DNA of 54,299 nucleotides from a virus (IMGVR_UViG_3300045933_000271:1-54299); one strand, 5' to 3'; counted from the first letter of the stretch, positions 1-54,299 are shown. The notes: generated from the sequence alone by a model not told the origin. Numbers and translations are program-made.

Positions 1-13
1 CCCAGCCGCCTCT
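1..13 (+). repeat. Terminal direct repeat / circular overlap (copy 1)
   Basis: CCCAGCCGCCTCT is identical to 54287..54299. Confidence 0.95.
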
Positions 14-21
14 CTCGCCAT
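1..21 (-). CDS. First 7 codons (MAREAAG) of the sigma factor gene, continuing at 54286
   Basis: ATG at 21..19; after merging the overlap the frame runs without stops into the GTG at 54202 and creates an intact CPQC-x12-H-x4-H finger. Confidence 0.85.
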
Positions 22-185
22 GCCCACTCTCTCGCTCCCCGTTTACTGCGCCTACTGTTCCGCCCGACCCATCCCAATTTTTCAGGGGAGGACCCCCCGG
101 ATCCTCCCCACCCCGGTCGCGGCCTCTCACCCTCTCTGCCTGGCCGCTGCTCCTGTCCCTGGGCTACATCCCCCGGGTTGACGAA

Positions 186-1778
186 CTACTTCTTCTTGGC
201 CGCCTTGGCCTCGGCTTCGAACTTCCCGCGGAGGCCCTTCTCGAGGGCCTTCATGTCGATCTTGAGCGCCTTGACGAAGTCAGCCAGTTCCATCCCGTTG
301 TTCCAGTCCTCGCAGCCGATGTCCTGGATGCAGAGCGAGAAGATCGCCACCTTGGCGAGCTCCGGATCGCCCATGTTGATCAGGGCATCGCGGAGCTTCT
401 TGTTCCTGAGGCCCGCGAGCTTGGGGAACTCCGTCTTCTGAAACTCTCGGTTTTCGTAGCCGACGTTCTCGAATTCGTTGGCGACCAGGAAGGCGACGGC
501 GCTGCGAGGGATCTCCCGGACCTTGTTCGAGATCTGGTGCCAGGCCTCGAGCTTGATCTTCTTCTCCAGCTCGGCCTTCGCCTCGGCGCGCGCCCTCTCG
601 TTCTGCTCCTTGAGCTCCTGGGCGGGGCTCTTGGGCTTCTGCGGGCTGGAGTAGCTGTGGTACTTCGGCTTCGGGTTGTGGACGCTGCAGCTGGCGGCCG
701 TGCAGACCTGGACCGACTGGCCGCGGTTCTTGCCGTCCCAGTAGTAGCCGATCCCAAGGTTCTTGCACCGCTTCTTGCCCGGCTCGTGGTACTCGCCCTT
801 GCGCTTCACGCCGGCGCGGCCCTCGATCGCGGCCAGGCGCCAGTTGTACTGCTCCTCGGAGATGACGATGCACTTGGTCTTCTGCGACTTCAGTCCCTTG
901 ATCTGCCGGTCGAGCCAGGTGTTGAACTTCTCCTTGAAGCAGTCCCGATCCGTGCAGGTCGAATCCTTCTGGACGTCGGGGAAGAGCGCGGGCGTGTTGC
1001 CGGTCCGCTTCGGGCACGCCGCACAGGAGCCCGCCTTGGGGACGAGCTTCTCATCCTTCATGTCCCACGGCATCCGGCCGAGATCTCGGTGGATGTCGTC
1101 GTCGATCCAGCGGGCCAGGGCTCGGACGGGGATCAGGGACTGTTCCATCTTGGGCTTGTGACCCCAGTCGTCGCGATCGCCTTCGGCGACGTCGACCTTC
1201 TGGATGCAGTGCTGGAGGGCTTCCTTCTGATCGTCCGGCGTGAGCCGCGCGATCAGGATGGCGTGACCGGCGGTGATCTGGTCGCTCAGGAAGGCCTGCT
1301 GCGCGGTCCCGGTGAGCTCGGTGAGCTTCAGCCGCTGCCAGATGTAGGACACGCTCTTGCCCACCTGGGCCGCGAGAGACTCGACGTTGTGGCGTTTGCG
1401 CTTCAGGAGCGCCTGGTATCCCTCGGCTTCCTCGAGGGGATGAACGTCCGCACGCTGGAGGTTCTCGATCACCTGGGCCTCGAGGGCCTGGTCATCCGAG
1501 AGCTCGCGGATTATGGCCGGGATCTCGTTCAGGCCCGCCTTCTTCGCGGCCCGGTACCGCCGGGCGCCGGCGACCACTTCGAACTTCGCCCCGATGGGCC
1601 GGACGAGGATCGGGACGATGACGCCCTGCTCCTTGACCGAGGCCGCGAGGTCCTCCATCGCCTTCGGATCGAATGTCCGCCGCGGGTTGGTCTTCGACTC
1701 CACCGCCAGGTCGAGAGCAAGGAGCTTGAACTCCTGCTCGACCGCCGCCGTTTCTGTCGCCACCTTCTCCTCCTTCAC
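186..1778 (-). CDS. parB: ParB/RepB/Spo0J family protein with Cys-rich and coiled-coil C-terminus
   Basis: NPRRTFD..LAASVKEQGVIVPILVRP, VVAGARRYRAA (GxRR CTPase box), IENLQRADVHPLEEAEGY, HTH LAAQVGKSVSYI; CAACPKRTG..CTDRDCF resembles long PRTRC-type ParB. Confidence 0.92.
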   Translation of the reverse strand: MKEEKVATETAAVEQEFKLLALDLAVESKTNPRRTFDPKAMEDLAASVKEQGVIVPILVRPIGAKFEVVAGARRYRAAKKAGLNEIPAIIRELSDDQALEAQVIENLQRADVHPLEEAEGYQALLKRKRHNVESLAAQVGKSVSYIWQRLKLTELTGTAQQAFLSDQITAGHAILIARLTPDDQKEALQHCIQKVDVAEGDRDDWGHKPKMEQSLIPVRALARWIDDDIHRDLGRMPWDMKDEKLVPKAGSCAACPKRTGNTPALFPDVQKDSTCTDRDCFKEKFNTWLDRQIKGLKSQKTKCIVISEEQYNWRLAAIEGRAGVKRKGEYHEPGKKRCKNLGIGYYWDGKNRGQSVQVCTAASCSVHNPKPKYHSYSSPQKPKSPAQELKEQNERARAEAKAELEKKIKLEAWHQISNKVREIPRSAVAFLVANEFENVGYENREFQKTEFPKLAGLRNKKLRDALINMGDPELAKVAIFSLCIQDIGCEDWNNGMELADFVKALKIDMKALEKGLRGKFEAEAKAAKKK

Positions 1779-1891
1779 AGGCCGATCACGGCCCGCAATA
1801 TCAGCAGCACGATCGGGAGGCTCACGATGAGCCTCAACGCGATCGCGCCGCCGCTTTCCCGGTCACTCGCATCCCTCTGGGTCACGTCCAC
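1775..1891 (-). CDS. Small single-TM peptide (38 aa, not in ORF track)
   Basis: GAGGAA RBS, GTG start, AIALRLIVSLPIVLLILRAVIGL; its TGA overlaps the parB GTG (GTGA). Confidence 0.55.
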   Translation of the reverse strand: MDVTQRDASDRESGGAIALRLIVSLPIVLLILRAVIGL

Positions 1892-1915
1892 GAGTTCCTC
1901 CTCTCTCTCTGGCCG

Positions 1916-2083
1916 CTACTTCTTCGCCGGCTCGCGCGCGGCCTTCGCCGCCGGGCATTTCGCCTCGTGCCTGGATCCGCAGTTCTTGTTGTTGAAGCCG
2001 TAGGCCTGGTGGACCGGCGCGCTGCAGTAGGGGCATGTCGCGATGCAGCAGTCCCCGCACTCGATGCAGATCTTGATGGGCAT
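1916..2083 (-). CDS. Small Cys-rich zinc-binding protein (55 aa)
   Basis: MPIKICIECGDCCIATCPYC..CGSRHEAKC; GGAGGG RBS; TGATG coupling with the upstream gene. Confidence 0.7.
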   Translation of the reverse strand: MPIKICIECGDCCIATCPYCSAPVHQAYGFNNKNCGSRHEAKCPAAKAAREPAKK

Positions 2084-2451
2084 CAAACCCTCCCTCCTTC
2101 CTGGTGCTGTTGGACCAGCGTCACCAGCTGGTCGCATTGTTCGATGGTGAACTTCCCGATGTGGGCCCCGTCGACGTCGAGGCCCATCGCCTGCTGCATC
2201 CAGCGGTAGGCGTCCGGTCGGCGCATGCGGCCGTCCTTCCAGAGTTCGTCGAAGGCCGCATGCGCGCGGATCCGCGCCTGTTTGGTCCGGCTGTCCGCGG
2301 GGATGCCCAGCGGCTTCCCGTCGGGGTGAGCGCCGTGCGTTCCCTTGCACTCCGGGAACCTAGTGCAGCCGTAGAACTGACCGAACCGGCTTTTCCGGAG
2401 CACCATCGGTGATTTGCACTCGCCGCACAGGACGGGAGCCGCGGCTTCCAT
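2083..2451 (-). CDS. Topoisomerase-type C4 zinc ribbon fused to DUF3268-like domain
   Basis: CGECKSPMVLRKSRFGQFYGCTRFPECKGT followed by GKPLGIPAD..RIRAHAAFDELWK..AYRWM..HIGKFTIEQC; start moved to coupled ATG 2451. Confidence 0.85.
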   Translation of the reverse strand: MEAAAPVLCGECKSPMVLRKSRFGQFYGCTRFPECKGTHGAHPDGKPLGIPADSRTKQARIRAHAAFDELWKDGRMRRPDAYRWMQQAMGLDVDGAHIGKFTIEQCDQLVTLVQQHQEGGRV

Positions 2452-3176
2452 CAAAGCGTCCTCCCGCTCAGCGAAGTCTTCTCCTTCGCCGTCACGCCGT
2501 CGATCCGCATCAGCTTCTTCTGGGCCTGAGCGATCTTGTTGAGGGCGACCTGGCCGGGCTGCAGGTAGGCGAGGACCGCGGGCTCTGAGTCCATCCGGGC
2601 CGCGACCCACTTCACCAGGGCCTTGAGGTCGTAGACCTCGGCGGACCAGGTCGACCTGGTCCCGACGCCGGAGACCTTCGCCACGTCGGACTCGACCGTC
2701 AGGGAGACGGGCGCGACCGGCTCGTTCAGGATCGCCTCGGCGCCTTCCTTGTCGCCGGCGGCCTCCGCCGCGGCCGCTTCATGGAGCTTGCGGTCCTCCT
2801 CGAGCCTCCGAGCTTCCGCGGCCAGGCGCTCAGCTTCCTCGCGCGCTTTGCGGTCTTGCTCGGCCTTGAAGGCGAGGACCTTCCCGTTGATGGTCTCGAG
2901 CGCCTTCTGGATCGGCTCGAGGTACTCCTTCTCGGCCGCGACCATCTCCTTGTGGGCCTTGAAGGCGATCTCCTTGGACCGTTCGAAGGTCGACTTCACG
3001 AGCTTCTCGATCTCCTTCCCGGAGAGGAACTCGTGCTTGGCGACCTCATCCTCCTCGCGCGTGGTGACCTGGAGGGCCATCACGTTCCGGAGGAACGGCC
3101 CGGACCGCTCCTCGATCTCCGCCACGTCGATCGCTGGAATCTCCCTGGGTTTTGTGAATGCCTGCATGGCGCTCAT
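2451..3176 (-). CDS. Conserved phage coiled-coil protein of the recombination module
   Basis: E/A/R-rich coiled coil then STWSAEVYDL..ALNKIAQAQK..IDGV; ATGA coupling at 3176. Confidence 0.75.
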   Translation of the reverse strand: MSAMQAFTKPREIPAIDVAEIEERSGPFLRNVMALQVTTREEDEVAKHEFLSGKEIEKLVKSTFERSKEIAFKAHKEMVAAEKEYLEPIQKALETINGKVLAFKAEQDRKAREEAERLAAEARRLEEDRKLHEAAAAEAAGDKEGAEAILNEPVAPVSLTVESDVAKVSGVGTRSTWSAEVYDLKALVKWVAARMDSEPAVLAYLQPGQVALNKIAQAQKKLMRIDGVTAKEKTSLSGRTL

Positions 3177-3745
3177 CCTTTCTTCCAAGCCGCGACCGCA
3201 ACGGCGGCCTTGGCGACCACAAAATCATTCCGGTCCGTGTAGTGCTGGACCCGGTACTTGCCGTCGGCCTGCAGGTGTATGCCCAGGCGCTCGACGGGAT
3301 CCGGGGAGAAGCAGAGCGCCTCGAGGGCCGACTGGATCGCGTAGAACCGGTAGACCTTGATCGAGGTCTTCCAGTTGATGCAGGCGAGCTTGCCCCGCCA
3401 CTTGGCCAGGGCGTCGACCTTCGTCGCGTAGCCCATCGCCTCGTTGCCCACGGGCATCTCCGTTCCCTGGATGTCGAGGCCGAGCTCGCTCGTGGCCTTC
3501 ATCACCGCCAGGAGGAAGCCCCGCTCCTCGATCGGCAGCAGGTTCTCGGGCGTGTCGACGTTCCGCAGGAACATGTCGATCGCTTCGTGGATCCGGTTTC
3601 CCTTCGAGGGGTCGAGGAGCGGCATCTCCTCGATTTCGTAGAGGCAGCCGACGTTCTTGAGGAGGCCGGTGATCCCGCCCAGGACCCGGCCCGCCGGCGT
3701 GATGTAGGTATGGTCGACGGCGCGGAACGTGACGGCGGTCACCAT
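3173..3745 (-). CDS. PD-(D/E)XK family exonuclease-like protein
   Basis: HTY..GITGLLK, GNRIHEAI, E..GYATKVDAL..INWKTS..YAIQ; motif III reads N-W-K. Confidence 0.8.
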   Translation of the reverse strand: MVTAVTFRAVDHTYITPAGRVLGGITGLLKNVGCLYEIEEMPLLDPSKGNRIHEAIDMFLRNVDTPENLLPIEERGFLLAVMKATSELGLDIQGTEMPVGNEAMGYATKVDALAKWRGKLACINWKTSIKVYRFYAIQSALEALCFSPDPVERLGIHLQADGKYRVQHYTDRNDFVVAKAAVAVAAWKKG

Positions 3746-5388
3746 TGGCCCTCCTTGACCGGCAAGGCCGGGCCCCTGAAGGTGAGCTCCATGATCCGAG
3801 CGACTCGCGGGAACTTGCCTTCGTACTCGAGGACGATCTTCTTCGGTTCGTTGATGCCCTTCGTCTGGATCAGGTCGATGGCCTCGTCGATCGTCGCCGG
3901 TGGGGGCAGGGGAGACCGGACCTTCCACCAAGCCTCGGCCTTGTTGCGGGCGAAGCCCTGATGCTGGAGGCAGATGAACTCGGACACCGGCCACATCGCG
4001 CCGATGTGATAGTCGACCCGGAGCGTGGGCGGCTTGCCTTCCGGGTTGTCTTTCTTCTCGTGCTTGGAGTACTCGATGGTGAAAACCTGCTCGGGCCCGG
4101 AGAGGACGTCCTTGTCGGCCGCCTTGCCGTCGTGCTTGACCTCGCGCGGCGCCCGCTCCTTCTTCTCGAACTTCATGCCGCAGTCCGGGCAGATCTCGCA
4201 GCTGTTGGAGACGACCTCCCGGCATGCGGGACATTCCTTGTAGTCGGGCTCGTCGACCTTGGCCGCGGCGCCGCGGCGCGGTGCGCGGATCCGGTCGATC
4301 GGGCCATGGCGCATCAGGTTCCCGCCGAAATCCAGGATCAGGCAGTCCTTCTTGCCCTCGGCCAGGCGGAAGCCGCGGCCCACCATCTGGTAGAAGAGGC
4401 CGGGGGACATGGTGGGCCGGAGGATGGCCACGCAGTCGACGCCCGGGGCGTCGAAGCCCGTGGTCAGCACGTCGACGTTGACCAGGTACTTGAGGCGCCG
4501 TTCGCGGAAGTCGCGGATCGTCCGGGCCCGCTCCTCGTTGGAAGTCAGGCTCTTATCCCCGAAGATGGTCCGGACCTCGACGCCCTCGACGTCGTTGATG
4601 AACTGGGCGATCTGCTGGGCATGCTCGATGCCGGAGGCGAAGACGAGGACGCTCTTGCGGTCCTCGGTCTTTCCGACGATTTCGGAGCAGGCCAGAATGA
4701 CCTGGTCGACGTCGGCGGTCATCGCCGCCTGCAGCTCGCCGGCCACGAACTCCCCGCCGCGGATGGAGACCTTCGACACGTCGGTCTGCTCGATCGCGGT
4801 CTTGGACTTGAGCGGCGAGAGGTAGCCCGCGACGATCAGCTGCTTGACGCCGATCTCGTAGCAGACCGCGTTCAGGAGGTTCTCGGGCAGGCAGATCACG
4901 CCCGACTGCAGTCGGTAGGGGGTCGCGGTCAGCCCGACCAGGCGGACGTTCGGATTGATCTTCTTCACCGCCTCGAGGAAGGTCCGGTACATCCCTTCGC
5001 CGTCGGGCGGGATCCGGTGGGCCTCGTCGATCGCGATGATGTCCACGTGGCCCAGGGCGTCGGCCTTGTTGTAGATGGACTGGATCCCGGCGACCGTGAT
5101 GGGGTAGCCCAGCTCCCTGGCGCCCAGGCCCGCCGAGTAGATCCCCACGCCGATCTCCGGAGCCATCTTCATGATGTTGCCGGCGGTCTGCTCGAGGAGC
5201 TCCTTCACGTGGGCGACGATGGCCATGCGGCCTTCCCAGCCCACGACGTCCTTCGCCATCTGCGCCAGCACGACGCCCTTGCCTGCGCCGGTCGGGAGGA
5301 CGATGCAGGGGTTGTCCTCGCGCGTGCGCACGTGCTTCCACAGCGCCTCGACGGCGTGCCGCTGGTACTCCCTGAGGATCAGTTCCAT
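3739..5388 (-). CDS. SF2 DEAH helicase (RadD/YejH-like) with zinc finger
   Basis: LREYQ, PTGAGKG, IDEAH, GLTATP, VLTTGFD, QMVGRGFR, CPAC..CEICPDC. Confidence 0.95.
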   Translation of the reverse strand: MELILREYQRHAVEALWKHVRTREDNPCIVLPTGAGKGVVLAQMAKDVVGWEGRMAIVAHVKELLEQTAGNIMKMAPEIGVGIYSAGLGARELGYPITVAGIQSIYNKADALGHVDIIAIDEAHRIPPDGEGMYRTFLEAVKKINPNVRLVGLTATPYRLQSGVICLPENLLNAVCYEIGVKQLIVAGYLSPLKSKTAIEQTDVSKVSIRGGEFVAGELQAAMTADVDQVILACSEIVGKTEDRKSVLVFASGIEHAQQIAQFINDVEGVEVRTIFGDKSLTSNEERARTIRDFRERRLKYLVNVDVLTTGFDAPGVDCVAILRPTMSPGLFYQMVGRGFRLAEGKKDCLILDFGGNLMRHGPIDRIRAPRRGAAAKVDEPDYKECPACREVVSNSCEICPDCGMKFEKKERAPREVKHDGKAADKDVLSGPEQVFTIEYSKHEKKDNPEGKPPTLRVDYHIGAMWPVSEFICLQHQGFARNKAEAWWKVRSPLPPPATIDEAIDLIQTKGINEPKKIVLEYEGKFPRVARIMELTFRGPALPVKEGQW

Positions 5389-5432
5389 CTAGGGGCGCCC
5401 GCCCCGAAGGGAGGGCGCCCGAGGGCGGAACT

Positions 5433-5933
5433 TTACTGAGCCTTCTTCATGCCCCACGGCGAGGCTCCCTTGGCGGGCGCCGCCGTGGTCTTCGGGTCGG
5501 CCTGAGGGCCGGTCTTGGGGCCGGCGTCGGCCGCCGCCGCGCCGTCGCGCGGATAGAAGCCCTTGATGTCGTTGTAGGTCTTGTCGCCGTCTTTCCGCTG
5601 CTCGACGCGGACCACGAGCGGCAGGTTGTGGAGCTCCGTCGTGTCCTTGGGCGTGTGGATCTTCACCGCGCGGCAGATCGAGGAGAGCTGGCCCTTCGCG
5701 ATCTGGACGGCCTTGTCGCTCTTGTTCATCAGGTTGAGGTTCGCCCAGAGGTTGCGGTCCTTGTACGGGCCGGTGATGACCTGGAAGGTCAGCTTGAGGT
5801 ACTTCCCGTCGTTCGCCTTCGTGTCGACCCACTCGCTCTCGGTCATCACGACCTCGTAGCGGGCGGGCGGCAGGGCTTCGAAGTCCTTCGCGGGATCCAC
5901 CTGGGTCGCGTCGAATCCGTCGATGTCGGCCAT
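5433..5933 (-). CDS. DUF669 family OB-fold putative single-stranded DNA-binding protein
   Basis: FDATQVDP..FEALPPARY..YLKLTFQVITGPYKDRNLWANLNL..AVQIAKGQLSSICRAV; flexible tail ending PW. Confidence 0.88.
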   Translation of the reverse strand: MADIDGFDATQVDPAKDFEALPPARYEVVMTESEWVDTKANDGKYLKLTFQVITGPYKDRNLWANLNLMNKSDKAVQIAKGQLSSICRAVKIHTPKDTTELHNLPLVVRVEQRKDGDKTYNDIKGFYPRDGAAAADAGPKTGPQADPKTTAAPAKGASPWGMKKAQ

Positions 5934-5975
5934 GGCTTCAGTCCTTTCGTTTGAAAAAGAAGTAGAGATCGGTCA

Positions 5976-6962
5976 CTAGGCGGGGGTGATCACGGTCGCA
6001 GATTCCCAGCCTTTCATCATCGCGGTCAGGAACACCTCCCAGGCCTTGTCCTTGGGGAAGGGGAGCTCGGAGGGCAGGTTGTAGCGGTTCTTTGCCACCC
6101 AGGCGGGCGAGGCGCCCGTCTTCATGATCCGCTCGCCGCCGTCCGCGCCGATGGGCGCCGCGATTGCGCGCTCCTGGAAGCCCGTGCCCTCCTTCTTCAC
6201 CACCAGGCGCTTCGTGATGAAGAGCGTGGCCGACACCCACTCGCGGACGAGCTCGTCGGCGGCTTCGTGGAGGCGCGGGGAGTAGCGGTCGTAGGCGGGA
6301 TTCTCCGGATCCTCGAACCGCTTGATCTTCGTGTGCGCGAGGAGGATGATCACCATCCCGCGCGCGTGGCAGCGCTCGAGGAGGGCGATCACCTGGCGCC
6401 ACTCGTCGAGGGCGAACTTGTAGCCCTTCTGGAAGCCGCCGCCCACGTCCTCGATGTTGTTCTTCCCGGTCCGCCGGCAGACGTGGTCCCAGATCAGGCG
6501 CTCGAGCCAGTCGAGGGTGTCGATCGCCACCGTTTCGAACTCGTGCTTGTCACTCGCGATCGCCGTCAGGTTGCCGATGAAGGCCTCGTAGCTCTGCGCC
6601 ACCGGGAATCGCGCGCAGCCGATCTCCTCCAGGCCCTTCTCGGTCTGGATCACGATGGGCTTGGGCGCCTGGGCGGCGAAGCTCGACTTGCCCATGCCGT
6701 CCTGGCCGTACATCAGGATCCGGGGCGGCTCGAGCTGCCGGCCGCGCTCGATCGTCCCCAGGACCCCGGCGGGCTTGGGCGCGGCCGCCGGCGCCGGCGC
6801 CGGGTCCGTCTTCTGTGCCGCGTTCCCGACCGTCTTCTCCATGGCCGCGAGGAAGTCGCTCTTGGGCGGAGCGGTCGCCTCCTCCTTCGGCTTCTCCTGG
6901 ACGGGCCCCGAGATCGCGGTGTGGTCCACCGCGGGCTTCGAGGCCTTGGTGCTGGTCGCCAT
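5976..6962 (-). CDS. AAA_24 / Sak4-like phage NTPase (recombinase)
   Basis: YGQDGMGKSS Walker A, IDTLDWLE, LLAH, AKNRY; AAGGAGG RBS before ATG 6962. Confidence 0.9.
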   Translation of the reverse strand: MATSTKASKPAVDHTAISGPVQEKPKEEATAPPKSDFLAAMEKTVGNAAQKTDPAPAPAAAPKPAGVLGTIERGRQLEPPRILMYGQDGMGKSSFAAQAPKPIVIQTEKGLEEIGCARFPVAQSYEAFIGNLTAIASDKHEFETVAIDTLDWLERLIWDHVCRRTGKNNIEDVGGGFQKGYKFALDEWRQVIALLERCHARGMVIILLAHTKIKRFEDPENPAYDRYSPRLHEAADELVREWVSATLFITKRLVVKKEGTGFQERAIAAPIGADGGERIMKTGASPAWVAKNRYNLPSELPFPKDKAWEVFLTAMMKGWESATVITPA

Positions 6963-7093
6963 GGTCGCCTCCTTCACAATGCGCTGCGCGAACTCCGCGC
7001 CGCTCTCTTCACTCATCCCGGCGGCCTGATCCTCTTGCCAACCAGGCCGCCGATCTGAACGCCCTCCCCCAGCAGGAGAGAGGGAATCGTCCG

Positions 7094-7375
7094 TCATGTC
7101 TTCTTCAGCCGCTCCTCGAAGTCGTCGCCGGCGTCGCGCAGCCGGCGATGGAGCTTCGCAGTGCTTTCACCGATCCGTTTTTCCCCGGGAGTGGGCTTCT
7201 GATCCGCCGCTCTCTCCGAAGAATTGGCCCGAGGTTGCGACCGGGCCTCCCGCGAGGGGACGCCACGTCCTCGGGCAGAGGGGGAATTTTTCTTGAGGCT
7301 GTCGCAGACGTCGCACGGCTTCTGCTCGGCCGCGTAGCCGCAGATGGCGAAGTGCGCGTCGTACTTGGAGTTCAT
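7094..7375 (-). CDS. Hypothetical protein
   Basis: ATGA-coupled to upstream gene; H-x3-C..CxxC N-terminus; remainder low complexity. Confidence 0.45.
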   Translation of the reverse strand: MNSKYDAHFAICGYAAEQKPCDVCDSLKKNSPSARGRGVPSREARSQPRANSSERAADQKPTPGEKRIGESTAKLHRRLRDAGDDFEERLKKT

Positions 7376-7677
7376 CTCGCGGCTTCCTCATCACATCCGG
7401 CGGAGTCGAGATGCTGGAAGTCCTTCTCCCATCCCAGCTGCTGGAGCTGCCAGCGGAAGTAGTCGTTCTCGTCGTAGCCCGGAGGGAGCGGGAAGACTTC
7501 GGTCGAGGTTTCCCCCCGCGGCCGAGTTTCGACTTTGCCGACTTCGGCGGTCCGAAAAGATTTCCCGGGATAGTCGTCCTCAGGGTAGGTCCGATCCGGA
7601 TCCTTGAAGACCTCCGGATCCCGGTGGAGGACCACGGCTCCGACCGCGAGGACGAAGAGGAAGCGGAGGAGAATCAT
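7372..7677 (-). CDS. Hypothetical protein with N-terminal membrane anchor or signal
   Basis: MILLRFLFVLAVGAVVL; GGAGG RBS; ATGA coupling. Confidence 0.65.
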   Translation of the reverse strand: MILLRFLFVLAVGAVVLHRDPEVFKDPDRTYPEDDYPGKSFRTAEVGKVETRPRGETSTEVFPLPPGYDENDYFRWQLQQLGWEKDFQHLDSAGCDEEAAR

Positions 7678-7973
7678 GACCTGACCTCCCGCCCCTCGGC
7701 CTTGGCGATCGCGGCCTCGAGTGCTTCCATCGCTGCGCGCGCCTCGTCGTGAGGCGGCTCGAAATAGGCGAGGATGGTCTGAGCGCACACGAGGAGATCC
7801 GGCGCGGCCGAGATGAGCCGGGCGTTCGCCTCGCCGTCGACGTCGGCGACGTGGAGCCTCGGGGAGCCAAAGATTGCGTCGATTGCTTCGGTCTCGACGT
7901 GATGCGTCCAGCAGCAAGCGTCCTTCGGGCGATCGGTGGCTTTCCAGGGACCGGGCGTGAAGCTTCTATCCAC
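7674..7973 (-). CDS. Conserved small phage protein (TPGPW...NARLIxAAPDLL type)
   Basis: FTPGPWK..EANARLISAAPDLL..AAIAKAEG. Confidence 0.8.
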   Translation of the reverse strand: MDRSFTPGPWKATDRPKDACCWTHHVETEAIDAIFGSPRLHVADVDGEANARLISAAPDLLVCAQTILAYFEPPHDEARAAMEALEAAIAKAEGREVRS

Positions 7974-8370
7974 GGTCCACCTCGCTCTCGTCGAAGCGGA
8001 CCTCGTCGCGGTCGTCGTCGCCGTCGGCCTCGTTGGGCTCGCAATCGCAGGGAACCGGCTCAAGGGTCCGCTCCATCCGACAGTGGATGCACTTCTCGTG
8101 GTCGATGTGGTAGGAAGTCGTCGCGTAGGTGATGTGGTCCGTGAGGGGGTTGTGGGCGACAGGCCGCTCGTCTACCTCATGCTCCCGCTCGTCGAGCTCG
8201 AACTCACACTCGACGCTGGACCCGTGCTCGAGAGTGGGGAAGTACTTCGCCTTGCAGGGGCAGCACATCCCATGGGAGATCTGGTCGGGCCCGGCCGGAT
8301 GGCCCTGGTGGATGACTTCCTTGCACCAGGCGCAGAGGATCTGAAGGTCTACCGCCGCTACTTTCGCCAC
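7966..8370 (-). CDS. Cys/His-rich protein, first gene of the leftward early operon
   Basis: GGAGG RBS; CAWC..SHGMCCPC, CIHC..CDC; acidic tail. Confidence 0.7.
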   Translation of the reverse strand: MAKVAAVDLQILCAWCKEVIHQGHPAGPDQISHGMCCPCKAKYFPTLEHGSSVECEFELDEREHEVDERPVAHNPLTDHITYATTSYHIDHEKCIHCRMERTLEPVPCDCEPNEADGDDDRDEVRFDESEVDRG

Positions 8371-8384
8371 CGTCGCCTCCCATG

Positions 8385-8534
8385 GCGACTGGGTGGATTT
8401 CGAGATCCACCCAGTCGCGCGATCAGAACCCGAGGAGCCCCACCCGCCCGGCTACAGGCTTGTCGTGACACGAGCGTTCGCCGGGCGTGGGGGCAGGGAT
8501 CGTCGGGTTCGGATTGTTCATCGCTCGTGTCACG
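8385..8534 (-). ncRNA. Structured leader or small RNA (pseudoknot or two-state switch plus long hairpin)
   Basis: 8464-8476 is the perfect 13-nt complement of 8522-8534; 8426-8452 pairs with 8480-8510; 8385-8418 is a 34-nt near-perfect palindrome; begins at the predicted +1. Strand is inferred. Confidence 0.65.
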
Positions 8535-8539
8535 TTGGG

Positions 8540-8568
8540 ATTATGACGGCGAGGTGTTCAAAAAGCAA
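8540..8568 (-). promoter_or_regulatory. Sigma70-type early leftward promoter
   Basis: TTGCTT-17bp-CATAAT on the minus strand in an AT-rich patch; predicted +1 near 8533. Confidence 0.65.
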
Positions 8569-8619
8569 CAGCAATTCGAAAGTATAGGCGATTATTTTTT
8601 AACTCATTTAGAGGGCCAT

Positions 8620-8808
8620 TTAGAGCCCTTTATTCCGCTTTCGCCGCCTCAGGATACGAACGGCCTTCAATCGCTCGGCGTTCATGGCGGCGATCCGGCA
8701 CTTGTCCGTATCGAACCGCTGCCAGTCTCGGCTGGCCTGATACTTCTTTCCGCACCATTCACACCTCGCCGGTCGAAGGAAGGGCCGCCACTTCCGCCGT
8801 CGTGGCAA
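8620..8808 (-). CDS. Small basic zinc-finger protein divergent from the recombinase
   Basis: CEWCGKKY..QRFDTDKCR; very Arg/Lys rich; own promoter upstream. Confidence 0.6.
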   Translation of the reverse strand: MPRRRKWRPFLRPARCEWCGKKYQASRDWQRFDTDKCRIAAMNAERLKAVRILRRRKRNKGL

Positions 8809-8829
8809 AGCACCCCCTGTCGCACGTGA

Positions 8830-8857
8830 AGTTTACAGTGCCCCCCAGCAGGGTCAA
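8830..8857 (-). promoter_or_regulatory. Sigma70-type promoter for the 62-aa ORF
   Basis: TTGACC-16bp-TAAACT on the minus strand. Confidence 0.5.
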
Positions 8858-9048
8858 AAGTATTCGGTATCGGTTACAATAAATATGAAACGTGAGTATA
8901 GGCATTTTTGTATAAGGGAGACGCAGTAGGGTCTGCGCTGGGTGGGAACGCGACCGGGCCTCCCGCGGGGCTTCAAGTGTGATACTCCGCGGAGGGAGTC
9001 AGAGGCGGCACGGGGAAAAGGATTGTTCGCCGCCGATGGTAGGGACGG

Positions 9049-10116
9049 TTGCGTGCCCGGGTTGTACCGCCAGCGGTCTCGCCCGAGATGGAGCGCTGGC
9101 TCTCCCAGCTCGCCAATCGAGGTCTATCCTCGAACACCATCTACGCCTACCGGAAGCGCCTGGACTGGTTTTTTGACTGGCTCCGCGGCACGGGCATGTC
9201 CTTGCTCGAGTTCACCTCCGACGCGATGGAGCAGTGGAAGTCCGACATGCGTGTCGCCCAGAAGCTCTCGATGCAGACGATCAAGGATCGATCCCTCACC
9301 GTAGCCGGCTTGTACGAATGGCTATGGCAGAAGAAGATCGTCTCCGAGCCCATCCACGTTGAGCCCATCAAGGTCCCCAAAAAGATCCCGAGGTATTTGA
9401 CCGAGGACCAGGTCCTGAAGGTGGTCGAGGTCGCGCGTTCGGTGAAGGCGGAGAAGCCCTTCTACCAGACGCGCGACCTCGCCCTCGTTGAGACCTTCTA
9501 TGCAAGCGGCGGCCGACTCTCCGAGGTTCTCAGCATGGACCTCGCCCGGACGAACCTGGACGCGGCCGAGGCGATCATCTCCGCGAAGGGGCAGAAGGAG
9601 CGGCTCCTGCGCCTGACCCCCGCGGCGGTCCGGGCAATCCGCGCCTGGCTTCAGGAACGGGCGGGGAAGCTCGAGGGCATGAAGAAGTCGGGCGAGGACG
9701 CGCTCTGGATCAGCTACTTCGGAAAGCGGCTTTCGGACTCGGGCGTGTGGCTCATCTTCGAGGGCCTCTGGCGCGTGGCGGGCCTGTCGGCGAAGCTCCA
9801 CCCTCACATGCTGAGACACTCGTTCGCCACCCATCTGCTCGAGCGCGGCGCCGACCTCCGTGAGGTTCAGGAACTGCTCGGGCATGGCGACGTCGGGTCG
9901 ACCCAAATCTATACCCATGTGTCCCAGCCCAGGCTGAGGAAGGTCTACCGGCGATCGCACCCGCGGGCGGTGGACAAACCGGTGGAAGAACCGGGGAAAC
10001 CACGCGCGATCGCCGTCACCGTCCACTTCACGGCCGACGAGATCCAGCGTTGCTGCGAGCTCGCTGAGGCTGCGGGGATCCCGCTCGAGGAATGGCTCCG
10101 GGGAAGGGTGCTTTAA
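9049..10116 (+). CDS. XerC/XerD-like tyrosine recombinase (integrase) with C-terminal RHH-like extension
   Basis: SAM-like N-domain (LSSNTIYAY), [50 protein letters not shown]: R-K-H-R-H-Y catalytic set intact. Confidence 0.95.
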
Positions 10117-10513: not shown

Positions 10514-10924
10514 GTGCTCAGGATAGGTCAAAGTTATTGGTTCGGCAGGAACATCAGGCACCTCTACTTCATCGTCTCCGATCCGGATCTTAATCCCGAT
10601 GAAGTGGTCGCCGTCAACATGACGACGATCAATCACGGGGAGAAATACGATTCCTCGTGCGTCCTCCATCCCGGCGATCACGTAGCAGTGACGCGCCCGT
10701 CGTACATCAGCTACTGGAGAATGCAGATTTCCAGCAGATTCAAGATCGAAGACGCAATCGCGATCCGTGTCTTCAGTCAAGACAGGGACCTCCGCCATGA
10801 TGTGCTTAGGATGATTCAAGCAGGGCTGATCAAATCCAAGGACTCAAAGCGCCGGGCGAAGGAGATCCTTATCGACCAGGGCGTGACCGCTGTCGAACTC
10901 GACGCGGCGGAAGAGGAGCTCTAG
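10514..10924 (+). CDS. PemK/MazF-like putative toxin
   Basis: HLYFIVSDP..VVAVNMTT..DSSCVLHPGDHVAVTRPSYISY pattern of MazF-fold proteins; adjacent to a Panacea gene. Confidence 0.65.
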   Translation: MLRIGQSYWFGRNIRHLYFIVSDPDLNPDEVVAVNMTTINHGEKYDSSCVLHPGDHVAVTRPSYISYWRMQISSRFKIEDAIAIRVFSQDRDLRHDVLRMIQAGLIKSKDSKRRAKEILIDQGVTAVELDAAEEEL

Positions 10925-11490
10925 GAGTTGAGGACCGAGCCCAGGAAATAGTCCTCGGCAGCTTCTGCTCGGATCCGATCGATTTGCTCCTCGGACTTGC
11001 CGACTTGCCGGAGAATCTCTTCGACCGGGATCTGAAGTCTTGAGCCGTTGGGATTCTTCCACTCGGGCAGGCCATGGGTTAGCTCGACCAGGTCCCACTT
11101 GCTCATCCCTTCGCACGCGTCGCTGACCTCGTCGAGGAGCGCCGTCTCGGACTCGGAGAGGTTTCCGGCGCCAGGATCGTCTTGGAGGGCAACGTCTACC
11201 TCACTGGTCTTCTTGATGAACCTATCCCAGATCCCGGCCCTGGGCGTGAATGCCCCGCCTTCGCCGGTGATGAGGTTGAGCAGATTACTCAGCACGGGGC
11301 CCTTATTCATGGAGACGTAGAGATCCCCGACGATGGGCCGGCCGTTCGCGCGGAAGCTCTCGCGCTCGGCCAGATAGAGGAGCTTCATCAGGGCCAAATA
11401 GGGCAGCGTACCCTGGCGGCGCTTCAACAGCCAAGCAGCCACCTGGGTGGCCTTGGCCTCGTTGAACCGGTACTTGATCTGATCTTTCAT
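10921..11490 (-). CDS. Panacea-domain (DUF4065/SocA-like) antitoxin
   Basis: FNEAKATQVAAWLL..LMKLLYLAERES..GRPIVGDLYVSMNKGPVLS..LVELTHGLPEWK. Confidence 0.88.
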   Translation of the reverse strand: MKDQIKYRFNEAKATQVAAWLLKRRQGTLPYLALMKLLYLAERESFRANGRPIVGDLYVSMNKGPVLSNLLNLITGEGGAFTPRAGIWDRFIKKTSEVDVALQDDPGAGNLSESETALLDEVSDACEGMSKWDLVELTHGLPEWKNPNGSRLQIPVEEILRQVGKSEEQIDRIRAEAAEDYFLGSVLNS

Positions 11491-11755: not shown

Positions 11756-11846
11756 GGAGGGTTGACCGAACGGTAAGGAGCCCGGCTTTAGAACCGTGGC
11801 GACCGCCTAGCGGCGGTTTGGGGGTTCGAATCCCCCACCCTCCTCA
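11756..11846 (+). tRNA. Non-canonical class II (long variable arm) tRNA, Ser-like scaffold, 8-nt anticodon loop CUUUAGAA
   Basis: Acceptor GGAGGGT/ACCCTCC 7 bp; D loop with GG; T arm GGGGG-TTCGAAT-CCCCC; variable arm GACCGCC-TAGC-GGCGGTT; anticodon stem CCCGG/CCG(T)GG; discriminator U, no encoded CCA. Confidence 0.85.
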
Positions 11847-12368: not shown

Positions 12369-12407
12369 AAACGAAAAGGGCCGCGCTGCTAGCGGTCAGC
12401 GCGGCCC
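12369..12407 (-). terminator. Intrinsic terminator for leftward read-through
   Basis: 11-bp stem GGGCCGCGCTG/CAGCGCGGCCC followed on the minus strand by TTTTCGTTT. Confidence 0.7.
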
Positions 12408-52858: not shown

Positions 52859-54299
52859 TTAGGGAAGGTCAGGGTCTTCCTCGACGCTGCCGTCGTTATC
52901 CCGGCGCGGGCGCCTCGAAGGCTTCCCCCCCCCCTCGTCCTTCGCCTTCTCGATGGCGGCGATCGCGCGGTCGATCTCCCCCAGCTCGGGGATCTGGGCG
53001 AGCAGCTCGCTGCGCCTGGCCGTCAGCGCGTTGAGCGCGATGTCGAAGCCCCTGGCCGCGCCGTTCGAATGCTGCTTCACCGCCAGCCTGGCCCGTCGCG
53101 CGGCCGCGGGGCCCTTGGGCTTGCGGCCGCGCCTGGGCTTCGCCTGGCCCGGGTGCTCATGCCGCCGATGAGCCCCGAGCGCCTGCGGGTTCTTGAATTC
53201 CATCCCCGGGCACTTCTCGCACTTGAGATCCGCCACGATCGCCTCCTTCGCCACATCCGCCACCACATCGGCCTCCACCGCGGCGACAGGCGCCGAGCCG
53301 TCGCAGAGCGCGATGGAGCCGTTCCGTCCTTCTCGTTTGCCGTTGGGAGTGAATTGCATTCCGAACCTCCCCGCCCGGGTCGCGCCGGCGAGGAGCGTGC
53401 CGTGGACGTGGTGCCGCCTCTTGAGGATGGCCAACGCCTTGTGCTCGACCTGCCGGACCCGTTGACGGCTGACACCGATTTCCTGGCCGACCTCGTCGAG
53501 GGTGCGGGGCACCTTGCCGTCGAGACCGTAGCGACGAACGAGAATCAGCTTCTCACGATTGCTCAGCCCGATGAGGATGCCAGCGAGCTCCTCCTTCGCG
53601 AGGACCTGGTCGGGCTCCTCCGGAGCTGCCAGAAGGCTCGCGATCGTATTGTCGCCGTCGCTGCTCGCGGCCACCTGGTCCATGCTGACCGTCCGCGCGG
53701 ACGACCTGGCCAGGACCAGGTCGAGGGTTCCTCGACCGATCTTGAGCTCCTTCTCGATGTCCTCCGGTTGCCAGCCGTCGAGCAGAAGCTTCCGGGCCTT
53801 GCTGATGTTCGCGCGCACGCCCTCGGGAACCGCGACCACGTGGGCCTGGTGCGAGTACCGCATGAGGAATTGCCGGATCCACCAGATGGCGTAGGTGGAG
53901 AACCTGAAGCCTTTCGACGGGTCGAAGAGCTCGGCCGCTCGGATCAGGCCCAGGTTGCCTTCCTGGATCAGGTCCATCTCGCGCGAGCGGTTGTGGGCGC
54001 GACGCTTCCGGACGAGGGATACGACCAGCCGAAGATTACTCTCGACGAGGAGCTTCTTGGCGTCGTCTGCCCTGGGTCCGTCGGCCTGGATCAGCCTCCC
54101 GAGTGCGACCTCTGCCTCGTGCGTCAGGAGACTACGCCCGGCCGATTCCTGACAGTACGCCTCGATCTGGTCGCGGCTCTTGCCGATCGGCTCACCGCTC
54201 ACCCGAGCATGCCGGTCCAGAAGATGGATGCCAAGCCTCTCGATGGAGCCGGTGTCTTCCTTGCACTGAGGGCAGAGAATCCGCCGCCCAGCCGCCTCT
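52859..54299 (-). CDS. Phage sigma-70 family factor flanked by two C2H2 zinc fingers (starts at position 21 across the junction, about 482 aa)
   Basis: Region 1.2 LLTHEAEVAL; region 2 NLRLVV, DLIQEGNLGLIRA, FDPSKGFRFSTYAIWWIRQ; region 4 RTLDEVGQEIGVSRQRVRQVE; fingers CPQC..H..H and CEKC..H..H. Confidence 0.92.
   Translation of the reverse strand, partial: EAAGRRILCPQCKEDTGSIERLGIHLLDRHARVSGEPIGKSRDQIEAYCQESAGRSLLTHEAEVALGRLIQADGPRADDAKKLLVESNLRLVVSLVRKRRAHNRSREMDLIQEGNLGLIRAAELFDPSKGFRFSTYAIWWIRQFLMRYSHQAHVVAVPEGVRANISKARKLLLDGWQPEDIEKELKIGRGTLDLVLARSSARTVSMDQVAASSDGDNTIASLLAAPEEPDQVLAKEELAGILIGLSNREKLILVRRYGLDGKVPRTLDEVGQEIGVSRQRVRQVEHKALAILKRRHHVHGTLLAGATRAGRFGMQFTPNGKREGRNGSIALCDGSAPVAAVEADVVADVAKEAIVADLKCEKCPGMEFKNPQALGAHRRHEHPGQAKPRRGRKPKGPAAARRARLAVKQHSNGAARGFDIALNALTARRSELLAQIPELGEIDRAIAAIEKAKDEGGGKPSRRPRRDNDGSVEEDPDLP
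54287..54299 (+). repeat. Terminal direct repeat / circular overlap (copy 2)
   Basis: Identical to 1..13. Confidence 0.95.

Follow-up and report, generated by a model that had tools for sequence, protein, structure and literature searches.

A structured leader with 5′-end/loop complementarity at the predicted early-transcript start of temperate soil phages

The record IMGVR_UViG_3300045933_000271 (the window; a complete virus record of 54,299 bp with about 65% G+C) is from a temperate tailed phage from soil, since an integrase, an early gene block and terminase, portal, head and tail genes are all encoded in it. The gap between its first early gene and the divergent integrase gene measures 680 bp and contains a small open reading frame (ORF62) and the structured element that is the subject of this study. 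Read on the minus strand, from about position 8534 down to 8371, the element is very likely a non-coding structured 5′ RNA of about 165 nucleotides (nt) that heads the replication/recombination operon. The structure is real and non-random, is conserved with compensatory changes and lies where the early transcript is predicted to begin; as its design has been kept through matching base changes in other phages, it is probably an undescribed regulatory RNA. The place had been marked in a first-pass annotation of the sequence as a candidate RNA switch, and its parts are given below, with two relatives (L001 and L008) that are introduced later in the text.

8569..8612, minus strand: AT-rich stretch upstream of the −35, a putative UP element by resemblance (sequence reading)
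8540..8568, minus strand: candidate early promoter TTGCTT-17-CATAAT, −35 at 8568-8563 and −10 at 8545-8540 (read from the sequence)
8522..8534, minus strand: segment A (CGUGACACGAGCG), the predicted 5′-terminal 13 nt, 100% complement of 8464-8476 (repeat finder)
8511..8521, minus strand: linker L1 between A and stem B, 11 nt (11 nt in L001, about 12-14 nt in L008)
8480..8510, minus strand: 5′ arm of stem B (minimum free energy (MFE) and centroid folds, RNAalifold)
8464..8476, minus strand: segment A′ (CGCUCGUGUCACG) in the apical loop of B (folds, repeat finder)
8426..8452, minus strand: 3′ arm of stem B (folds, RNAalifold, pair count)
8385..8418, minus strand: hairpin C, a 14-bp perfect stem with a 6-nt loop and no U tail (folds, repeat finder)
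8372..8389, minus strand: Shine-Dalgarno (SD) mini-hairpin, GUCGCC (8389-8384), AUGGGA, GGCGAC (8377-8372) (sequence reading)
7966..8370, minus strand: first operon gene, encoding a Cys/His-rich protein of 134 amino acids (aa), with a GTG start at 8370

The 13-nt perfect pairing of 8522-8534 with 8464-8476, described in the first-pass annotation, was recovered by sequence reading and by the repeat finder, and the folds and the repeat finder likewise returned the interrupted stem (8426-8452/8480-8510) that carries the target in its loop. The A/A′ duplex has an energy of −26.4 kcal/mol, and stem B is an interrupted, GC-rich stem of about 25 bp. The 14-bp hairpin placed by the same annotation shortly before GGAGG is also present; it ends 4 nt before this motif (8380-8376), is followed by CAUGGGAGG, and its base is overlapped by the 5′ arm of the SD mini-hairpin. 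Hairpin C is absent from the list of terminator-like sites, of which none was found in 8200-9200, and no GC-rich hairpin followed by a U run, as expected of an intrinsic-terminator attenuator, lies between promoter and gene. The motif of segment A has no other copy in the 54,299-bp record, nor, in the neighbourhood of the site, one with up to three mismatches. Perfect inverted repeats of at least 13 nt were found in none of 1000 dinucleotide shuffles of 8371-8568, those of the real sequence measuring 14 and 13 nt. Folding energies were −86.4 kcal/mol for the minus strand (z = −5.2) and −92.1 kcal/mol for the plus strand (z = −5.65), and a fold as good as the real one was obtained in none of 200 shuffles.

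Relatives of the first gene with available DNA amounted to two loci, L001 and L002, of the six homologues of its protein (66-72% identity). L001, which was found via the first-gene protein and without the RNA motif, is a syntenic metagenomic relative with integrase, ORF62, leader, first gene, phrog_1273 and Sak4. Its leader contains a 15-nt perfect A/A′ pair and a long interrupted GC-rich stem; in its 3′ part follow hairpin C, which is very long here, and a small hairpin formed around GGGAGG. Between the window and L001, no difference is seen in the first 8 nt of A (CGTGACAC) or in GTGTCACGAC of A′, and GUGUCACGAC of A′ is likewise common to both; the distal 5-6 positions of A/A′ differ (GAGCG/CGCTC vs ACGCGC/GCGCGT, window/L001 comparison) with all pairs kept. 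At L002 a tRNA gene in reverse orientation immediately precedes the first-gene homologue, and no structured leader is present in the stretch 1-520 of this locus. The C-terminal end of an apparent large serine recombinase was also noticed upstream by eye at L002, a different integration module.

A search of IMG/VR with the pattern CGTGACAC-N40-70-GTGTCACGAC returned 22 loci, of which two were accepted, L008 and L022, 18 of the conserved nucleotides in both being fixed by the search pattern itself. The other 20 loci were rejected as coding regions, GTGACA-type iteron-like repeats or one long perfect palindrome. In L008, the promoter-like sequence TTGACA-17-CATCCT, a 14-nt A/A′ pair (6 nt beyond the pattern), stem B, a long hairpin C and an SD hairpin precede an unrelated first gene of 110 aa, and the element adjoins a divergent integrase. 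In L022, a 12-nt A/A′ pair (4 nt beyond the pattern) follows right after a promoter-like AT-rich region and adjoins a divergent CI-type repressor (helix-turn-helix (HTH) plus S24); the hairpin that carries A′ in its loop is here unrelated in sequence, the 5′-end/loop pairing alone being kept. Hairpin C of L001 and L008 is much longer, imperfect and of unrelated sequence, and occupies the same place. The SD-hairpin equivalents are GCCGCC...GGCGGC in L001 and AGCCGCCU-UGGG-AGGCGGCU in L008, with a U:A pair of the window exchanged for C:G in both.

Measured directly, A and A′ are perfect Watson-Crick complements over 13, 15, 14 and 12 nt in the window, L001, L008 and L022, with start-to-start distances of 58, 59, 57 and 70 nt, respectively. 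For the three close members (window, L001 and L008), stem B was predicted by RNAalifold with 33 pairs, 9 of them compensatory. When the crossed structure (A/A′ plus B) was specified, 91.7% of 108 cells were standard pairs, vs 31.7-50% with the partners slid by 1-3 columns; the values per helix were 97.4%, 91.2% and 75.0%, and the A helix of L008 is understated in the alignment because MAFFT misplaces a 2-nt repeat. Covariation had been proposed as a check by the first-pass annotation, and changes on both sides were found at 10 pairs (2 + 8) in this small sample of three sequences, neither the observed pairing nor the covariation being matched in any of 500 shuffles. Covariation on three related sequences is indicative and amounts to no significance test. 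In all three close members, the order of the arms is that of an H-type pseudoknot, S1a-S2a-S1b-S2b (segment A, then the 5′ arm of B, segment A′ and the 3′ arm of B), and the crossed helices suspected at the outset recur through compensatory changes.

The family is taken as three clear members and one partial member because further searches yielded nothing more. A second pattern without segment A (CCCAC..GTGTCACGAC..GGTGGG) returned three loci, namely the L008 record and two unrelated ones, and a 24-nt stretch of the window gave no match in IMG/VR. In the locus searches, neither the first-gene protein alone nor Sak4 alone gave a match; the first-gene alignment reached, beyond L001 and L002, two weak genome loci and three weak viral loci, none with the element, the ORF62 alignment reached one distant locus without the leader, and the search with the L008 first gene returned only itself. 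Among GenBank phages, neither the DNA nor the first gene was matched, and Sak4 matches reached at most 41% identity. With a covariance model run over 31 sources (220,552 bases), no further copy was found and the strong matches were the three training sequences only, the reverse strands of which scored 30-34 bits, reflecting hairpin symmetry. Parts of the stretch occur in 12 soil runs, of which four were examined; where DNA contigs cover the leader, they show no difference from the window and therefore provide no variants. Each of the three whole records contains one copy of the element.

The phages concerned have little else in common. By tblastn on stop-to-stop frames, the window and L008 share the integrase only (35%), the window and L022 a Sak4-like protein only (27%), and L008 and L022 no protein at E ≤ 1e-3, so that none is common to all the phages. 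The element would therefore work alone or via host components. That the leader has no function, being a GC-rich palindromic filler or the insertion of a selfish palindrome after the promoter, is highly improbable. Strong folding is general in high-GC intergenic DNA, hairpin C is wholly different in sequence and length between members and L002 is without the leader, all of which would suit mere filler; nevertheless, A/A′ and B are compensatory in phages that share almost no genes, none of the 1000 shuffles reached the repeat lengths, and the position relative to the promoter is fixed within 1 nt. That the element is a functional leader RNA can be held with considerable confidence.

The promoter TTGCTT-17-CATAAT claimed in the first-pass annotation is present, and its position is conserved in L001 and L008. 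It has 8 of 12 consensus matches, below the threshold of the scan, and was missed there because its −35 has only three of six matches. Better hexamers stand at the same place in L001 (TTGCAA-17-CATACT) and in L008 (TTGACA-17-CATCCT), and an A/T-rich stretch precedes the −35 in both. The 17-nt spacer and a distance of 5-6 nt from the −10 to segment A are kept in the window, L001 and L008, the leader position being constant within 1 nt with respect to the promoter in these three close members, and in all three the A/A′ complementarity ends at the transcript start that the promoter predicts. On these grounds, the transcript would begin at segment A or within 1-2 nt of it.

An antisense RNA on the plus strand had also been considered in the first-pass annotation, on the ground that the plus strand fits the structure slightly better. 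No plus-strand promoter-like site was found in the scan. The energetic argument applies to the window (−92.1 vs −86.4 kcal/mol) and fails across the relatives; fold energies and G:U counts gave a mixed picture, sense being better in L001 and L008 and antisense in the window and L022. The element is assigned to the minus strand because a promoter on the gene strand is conserved in three members and no plus-strand promoter-like site is present. In a soil metatranscriptome run, contigs identical to 7211-7358, 7778-7940 and 8794-8944 were found and none over the leader. These contigs count neither for nor against leader transcription; they hint at transcription of the phage or prophage in situ, or at DNA in the library.

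The same geometry bears on a reading at the DNA level, to which only a small probability is given, in which A and A′ are inverted binding sites for a repressor of host or phage origin, one at the start and the other 57-70 bp downstream, and their pairing is a by-product. One copy overlaps +1, the classical operator position, and the core CGTG(A/T)CAC(G) is nearly palindromic; the copies match perfectly and without differences of the G:U type, the spacing is 58, 59 and 57 bp in three phages and 70 bp, longer by roughly a helical turn, in the fourth, and ORF62, a small basic Cys-containing protein, is encoded alongside in the window and L001. However, ORF62 is missing from the L008 and L022 records, and the variable parts lie on one side of the core and change jointly, which would need a phage-specific protein, none being common to the phages. 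A′ is, moreover, always found in the loop of an RNA-type hairpin (G:U pairs, bulges, compensatory changes), even in the unrelated hairpin of L022, the complementarity stops at the predicted transcript start, and the motif is single in three whole records. A module without a common protein argues against the operator of a phage repressor and fits a cis-acting RNA.

A leaderless open reading frame from a GUG in segment A was tried and rejected for the three close members. From this GUG, 36 codons can be read in the window, 53 in L001 and 46 in L008, another frame being longer (57, 75 and 57 codons), and the G+C content of the GUG frame at third codon positions (GC3) is 0.75-0.78 vs 0.86-0.95 in real genes. 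It was not read as coding because of the longer rival frame, the low GC3 and the frame at A′, which differs in L001. In L022, the first gene (972-1283, minus strand) encodes an HTH-like protein of 103 aa, and its sole in-frame start is the GUG inside segment A; judging from this sequence, the L022 gene may have a leaderless mRNA, and the start codon for its translation would then be buried in the A/A′ helix.

The folding tools used exclude pseudoknots, and the two helices together were therefore treated as an energy sum and not as a fold. With A and A′ single-stranded, the window folds at −77.8 kcal/mol; because this value is to be added to −26.4 kcal/mol, the crossed structure would beat the nested MFE of −86.7 kcal/mol unless the pseudoknot penalty exceeded about 17 kcal/mol. 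A pseudoknot within one molecule would be compatible with these modelled energies; the alternatives to a full pseudoknot are a switch of A/A′ with the base of B and a pairing between two molecules.

The element is best read here, tentatively and with limited confidence, as a cis-acting post-transcriptional leader that would cap the 5′ end, be processed at hairpin C and gate translation of the first gene. Transcription from TTGCTT-17-CATAAT would begin at segment A, which would pair with A′ over 13 bp, so that the 5′ end would be hidden inside a pseudoknot or a conformer alternating with the base of B. The paired 5′ end would shield the transcript from 5′-end-dependent decay, the long double-stranded hairpin C could be an RNase III-type processing site, and the overlap of hairpin C and the SD hairpin might set the level of first-gene translation, all of these steps being in cis, post-transcriptional and without a phage-specific protein.

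Several points weigh against this cis-acting leader. RNase III cleavage, 5′-end protection and translational gating are steps that we infer, and the transcript start is a predicted one, as the contigs of the RNA run do not cover the leader and carry neither strand nor end information. Fold energies give no consistent preference for the sense strand. The members number only three or four, two of them obtained with a pattern that fixes 18 nt, and the covariation statistics are weak; one of the two first-gene loci with upstream DNA, L002, is entirely without the leader. The four A/A′ helices do not contain any G:U pair and their core GTGACAC is near-palindromic, which fits paired DNA sites too. 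Finally, on geometric reasoning and not by computation, an 11-nt linker must span a stem of about 25 bp, and the pseudoknot may be strained.

Among known systems, 5′ stabilisers and processed leaders are represented by the 5′ hairpin of Escherichia coli ompA, the 5′ pseudoknot of T4 gene 32, the lambda N leader and the early RNase III sites of T7. The present element resembles them in its paired 5′ end, in the long hairpin before the ribosome-binding site and in the SD sequence in or next to a small hairpin. It differs in that the 5′ end, in place of forming a simple terminal hairpin, has its partner in the loop of a hairpin farther away, and in that part of the helix is conserved in sequence (CGUGACAC/GUGUCACGAC). 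If it is a 5′ stabiliser or processing leader, it would still be a new RNA motif for Rfam, with long-range 5′-end/loop pairing.

At the gathering threshold, Rfam 15 matched only a tRNA (11756-11844) in the whole window, and a scan of 8300-9100 at E ≤ 10 gave five noise matches of at most 14.9 bits. Similarly, L001, L008 and L022 scanned at E ≤ 1 gave only matches far below the gathering scores, attributable to hairpin noise. No self-cleaving ribozyme (hammerhead, HDV-like, twister or others) was among the Rfam matches to E = 10 in the window and to E = 1 in the relatives, and no match was obtained to the phage antisense or immunity RNA families held in Rfam. A literature search found no description of such an element and is the sole basis for regarding it as not in print. 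As far as sequence comparison can tell, the element belongs to no described RNA family. To our knowledge, very few phage early operons begin with a regulatory RNA that needs no protein, the examples being HK022 put and the P4/P1 immunity RNAs, all of them enterobacterial; the present element, which comes from uncultured soil phages of high G+C content, is a further candidate of unrelated structure and is kept as a small module in phages with hardly any genes in common.

The P4 CI RNA and the C4 RNA of P1 had been suggested by the first-pass annotation as models; with the C4 RNA of P7, they form a group of leader-derived immunity RNAs. The likeness lies in the leader of the replication operon of a temperate element, in a hairpin that displays the complement of a segment of the same leader and, for the window, in the absence of an adjacent protein repressor, as the annotation had stated: no CI-like repressor was found with Pfam, PHROGs and NCBIfam, either beside the leader or elsewhere in the phage. 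The differences are a single target at the extreme 5′ end as opposed to two flanking ones, the absence of a predicted terminator and the coexistence of a relative of the element, in L022, with a CI-type repressor. The P4 CI RNA is described as processed from an untranslated leader and as pairing, within the same transcript, with the flanking seqA and seqC, which causes termination and so prevents expression of the replication genes (PMC4825925). An immunity RNA of this type would act here in trans, hairpin B being excised as a stable small RNA and its A′ loop pairing with A of new transcripts, so as to silence the early operon in lysogens in place of a protein repressor. The loop is perfectly complementary to the upstream leader segment, perfect duplexes of 12-15 nt suit an antisense pair, and pairing of two molecules avoids the strain of an intramolecular pseudoknot. 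Nevertheless, such a role is quite improbable. Membership of the P4 CI/C4 family is not supported, given the lack of an Rfam match, of a terminator and of a second target above shuffled probes: within 1.5 kb downstream, the best duplex of the A′ loop did not surpass the median of 200 shuffled probes in any of the four phages. Between A′ and the gene there is no terminator-like site, no tRNA-like processing signal was seen, and the element of L022 stands beside a CI-type repressor, which speaks against a general immunity role.

The other precedent is a processive antiterminator. In PMC9378689, HK022 putL is described as an RNA of about 70 nt just downstream of PL, folded from nt 3 and without a dedicated protein, and put RNA as two stem-loops with a small triplex, present twice per genome. 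The likeness to put is that of a structured, protein-free cis RNA within the first 3 nt of a temperate-phage early transcript, the structure here also starting from the first nucleotides. The early-transcript location is thus shared, whereas two adjacent stem-loops of about 70 nt are not found; instead, a 5′-end/loop helix of 12-15 bp and a long hairpin cross each other in a core of about 110 nt, which is followed by a separate hairpin and occurs once per genome. By analogy with put, the leader would bind the very host RNA polymerase that transcribed it, which would then resist pausing and termination over the long early unit, and perhaps over all of the leftward one, without a phage protein. 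The cassette occurs in phages without a shared protein and heads units of at least 8 kb; nearly all window genes, including the late ones past the record ends, run in the same direction, as do 41 of the 51 genes in the L022 phage. On the other side stand the lack of any likeness in sequence or architecture and the single copy in place of two. No intrinsic terminator was predicted on the minus strand of the early operon (1-8400), Rho-dependent sites being unpredictable, later genes are probably served by a sigma factor that the phage itself encodes, and the late genes of L008 converge on the early unit. Antitermination of this kind is considered unlikely.

The wider proposal, that a self-contained cassette of promoter, 5′-end/loop pseudoknot and processing hairpin moves between unrelated temperate soil phages without a protein, as a structurally new class of put-like processive antiterminator that reprogrammes the host RNA polymerase or as an RNA-only immunity switch in tailed phages without CI, is unlikely. 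If antitermination or RNA immunity were true, both classes would be extended beyond enterobacteria, and the element would be a compact, portable control element.

The remaining genes and features around the leader are as follows.

186..8063, minus strand: rest of the early operon (phrog_1273 protein, 93-aa open reading frame, Sak4-like annealase, DUF669 protein resembling a single-stranded DNA-binding protein, helicase, exonuclease, ParB-like protein)
8620..8808, minus strand: ORF62, a very basic protein of 62 aa with a CxxC...C pattern, directly upstream of the leader promoter
9049..10116, plus strand: tyrosine integrase, divergent from the early operon (family matches)
52859..54202, minus strand: sigma-70-family factor with regions 2 and 4 (phrog_351)

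The first-gene protein has no family match in Pfam, PHROGs and NCBIfam. The window integrase is 36% identical to that of L001 and 31% identical to that of L008, and its relative position is alike. ORF62 has a promoter-like site of its own (TTGACC-16-TAAACT, 8857-8830), which is the best sigma-70 match of the region; the protein and its L001 counterpart have 77% identity, a distant relative of 100 aa occurs in a further locus (L030), and the only similarity to PDB chains is weak and zinc-finger-like (E 7e-4). By tblastn it is present neither in the L008 and L022 records nor at the equivalent place in L008. Its slot is where a repressor gene would sit. Leftward past the record ends follow the sigma factor, which probably drives later genes, a primase/helicase, terminase, portal, and head and tail genes. 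A 13-nt exact direct repeat was observed at the record ends (1-13 and 54287-54299); it is compatible with a circular assembly, and the leftward early genes may therefore be continuous with those for the sigma factor, primase, terminase and structural proteins.

On the other side of the integrase, a tRNA-like gene was found at 11756-11845 (plus strand), which measures about 90 nt, has a long variable arm and scores 37.4 bits against the Rfam tRNA model. ARAGORN names no anticodon for it and gives ‘ttag’, from which the anticodon loop would have 8 nt; an unusual phage tRNA and a piece of the attachment site are both possible readings. Between the integrase and this gene, a gene with a SocA/Panacea antitoxin domain (10921-11490, minus strand) is convergent with a phrog_19071 gene (10514-10924, plus strand); the pair (10514-11490) may be a moron of the toxin-antitoxin or defence type. 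Of all terminator-like hairpins in the region, the strongest lies on the minus strand at 12378-12407, just past small rightward genes; it has 11 pairs, 10 of which are G:C, and a T run behind them. Short direct repeats, centred on AGTATAGGC and with a T-rich run after them, occur at 8576-8590, near the leader promoter, and at 8854-8905, in the promoter region on the integrase side; the latter region is kept in L001, and the repeats may be shared promoter or operator pieces.

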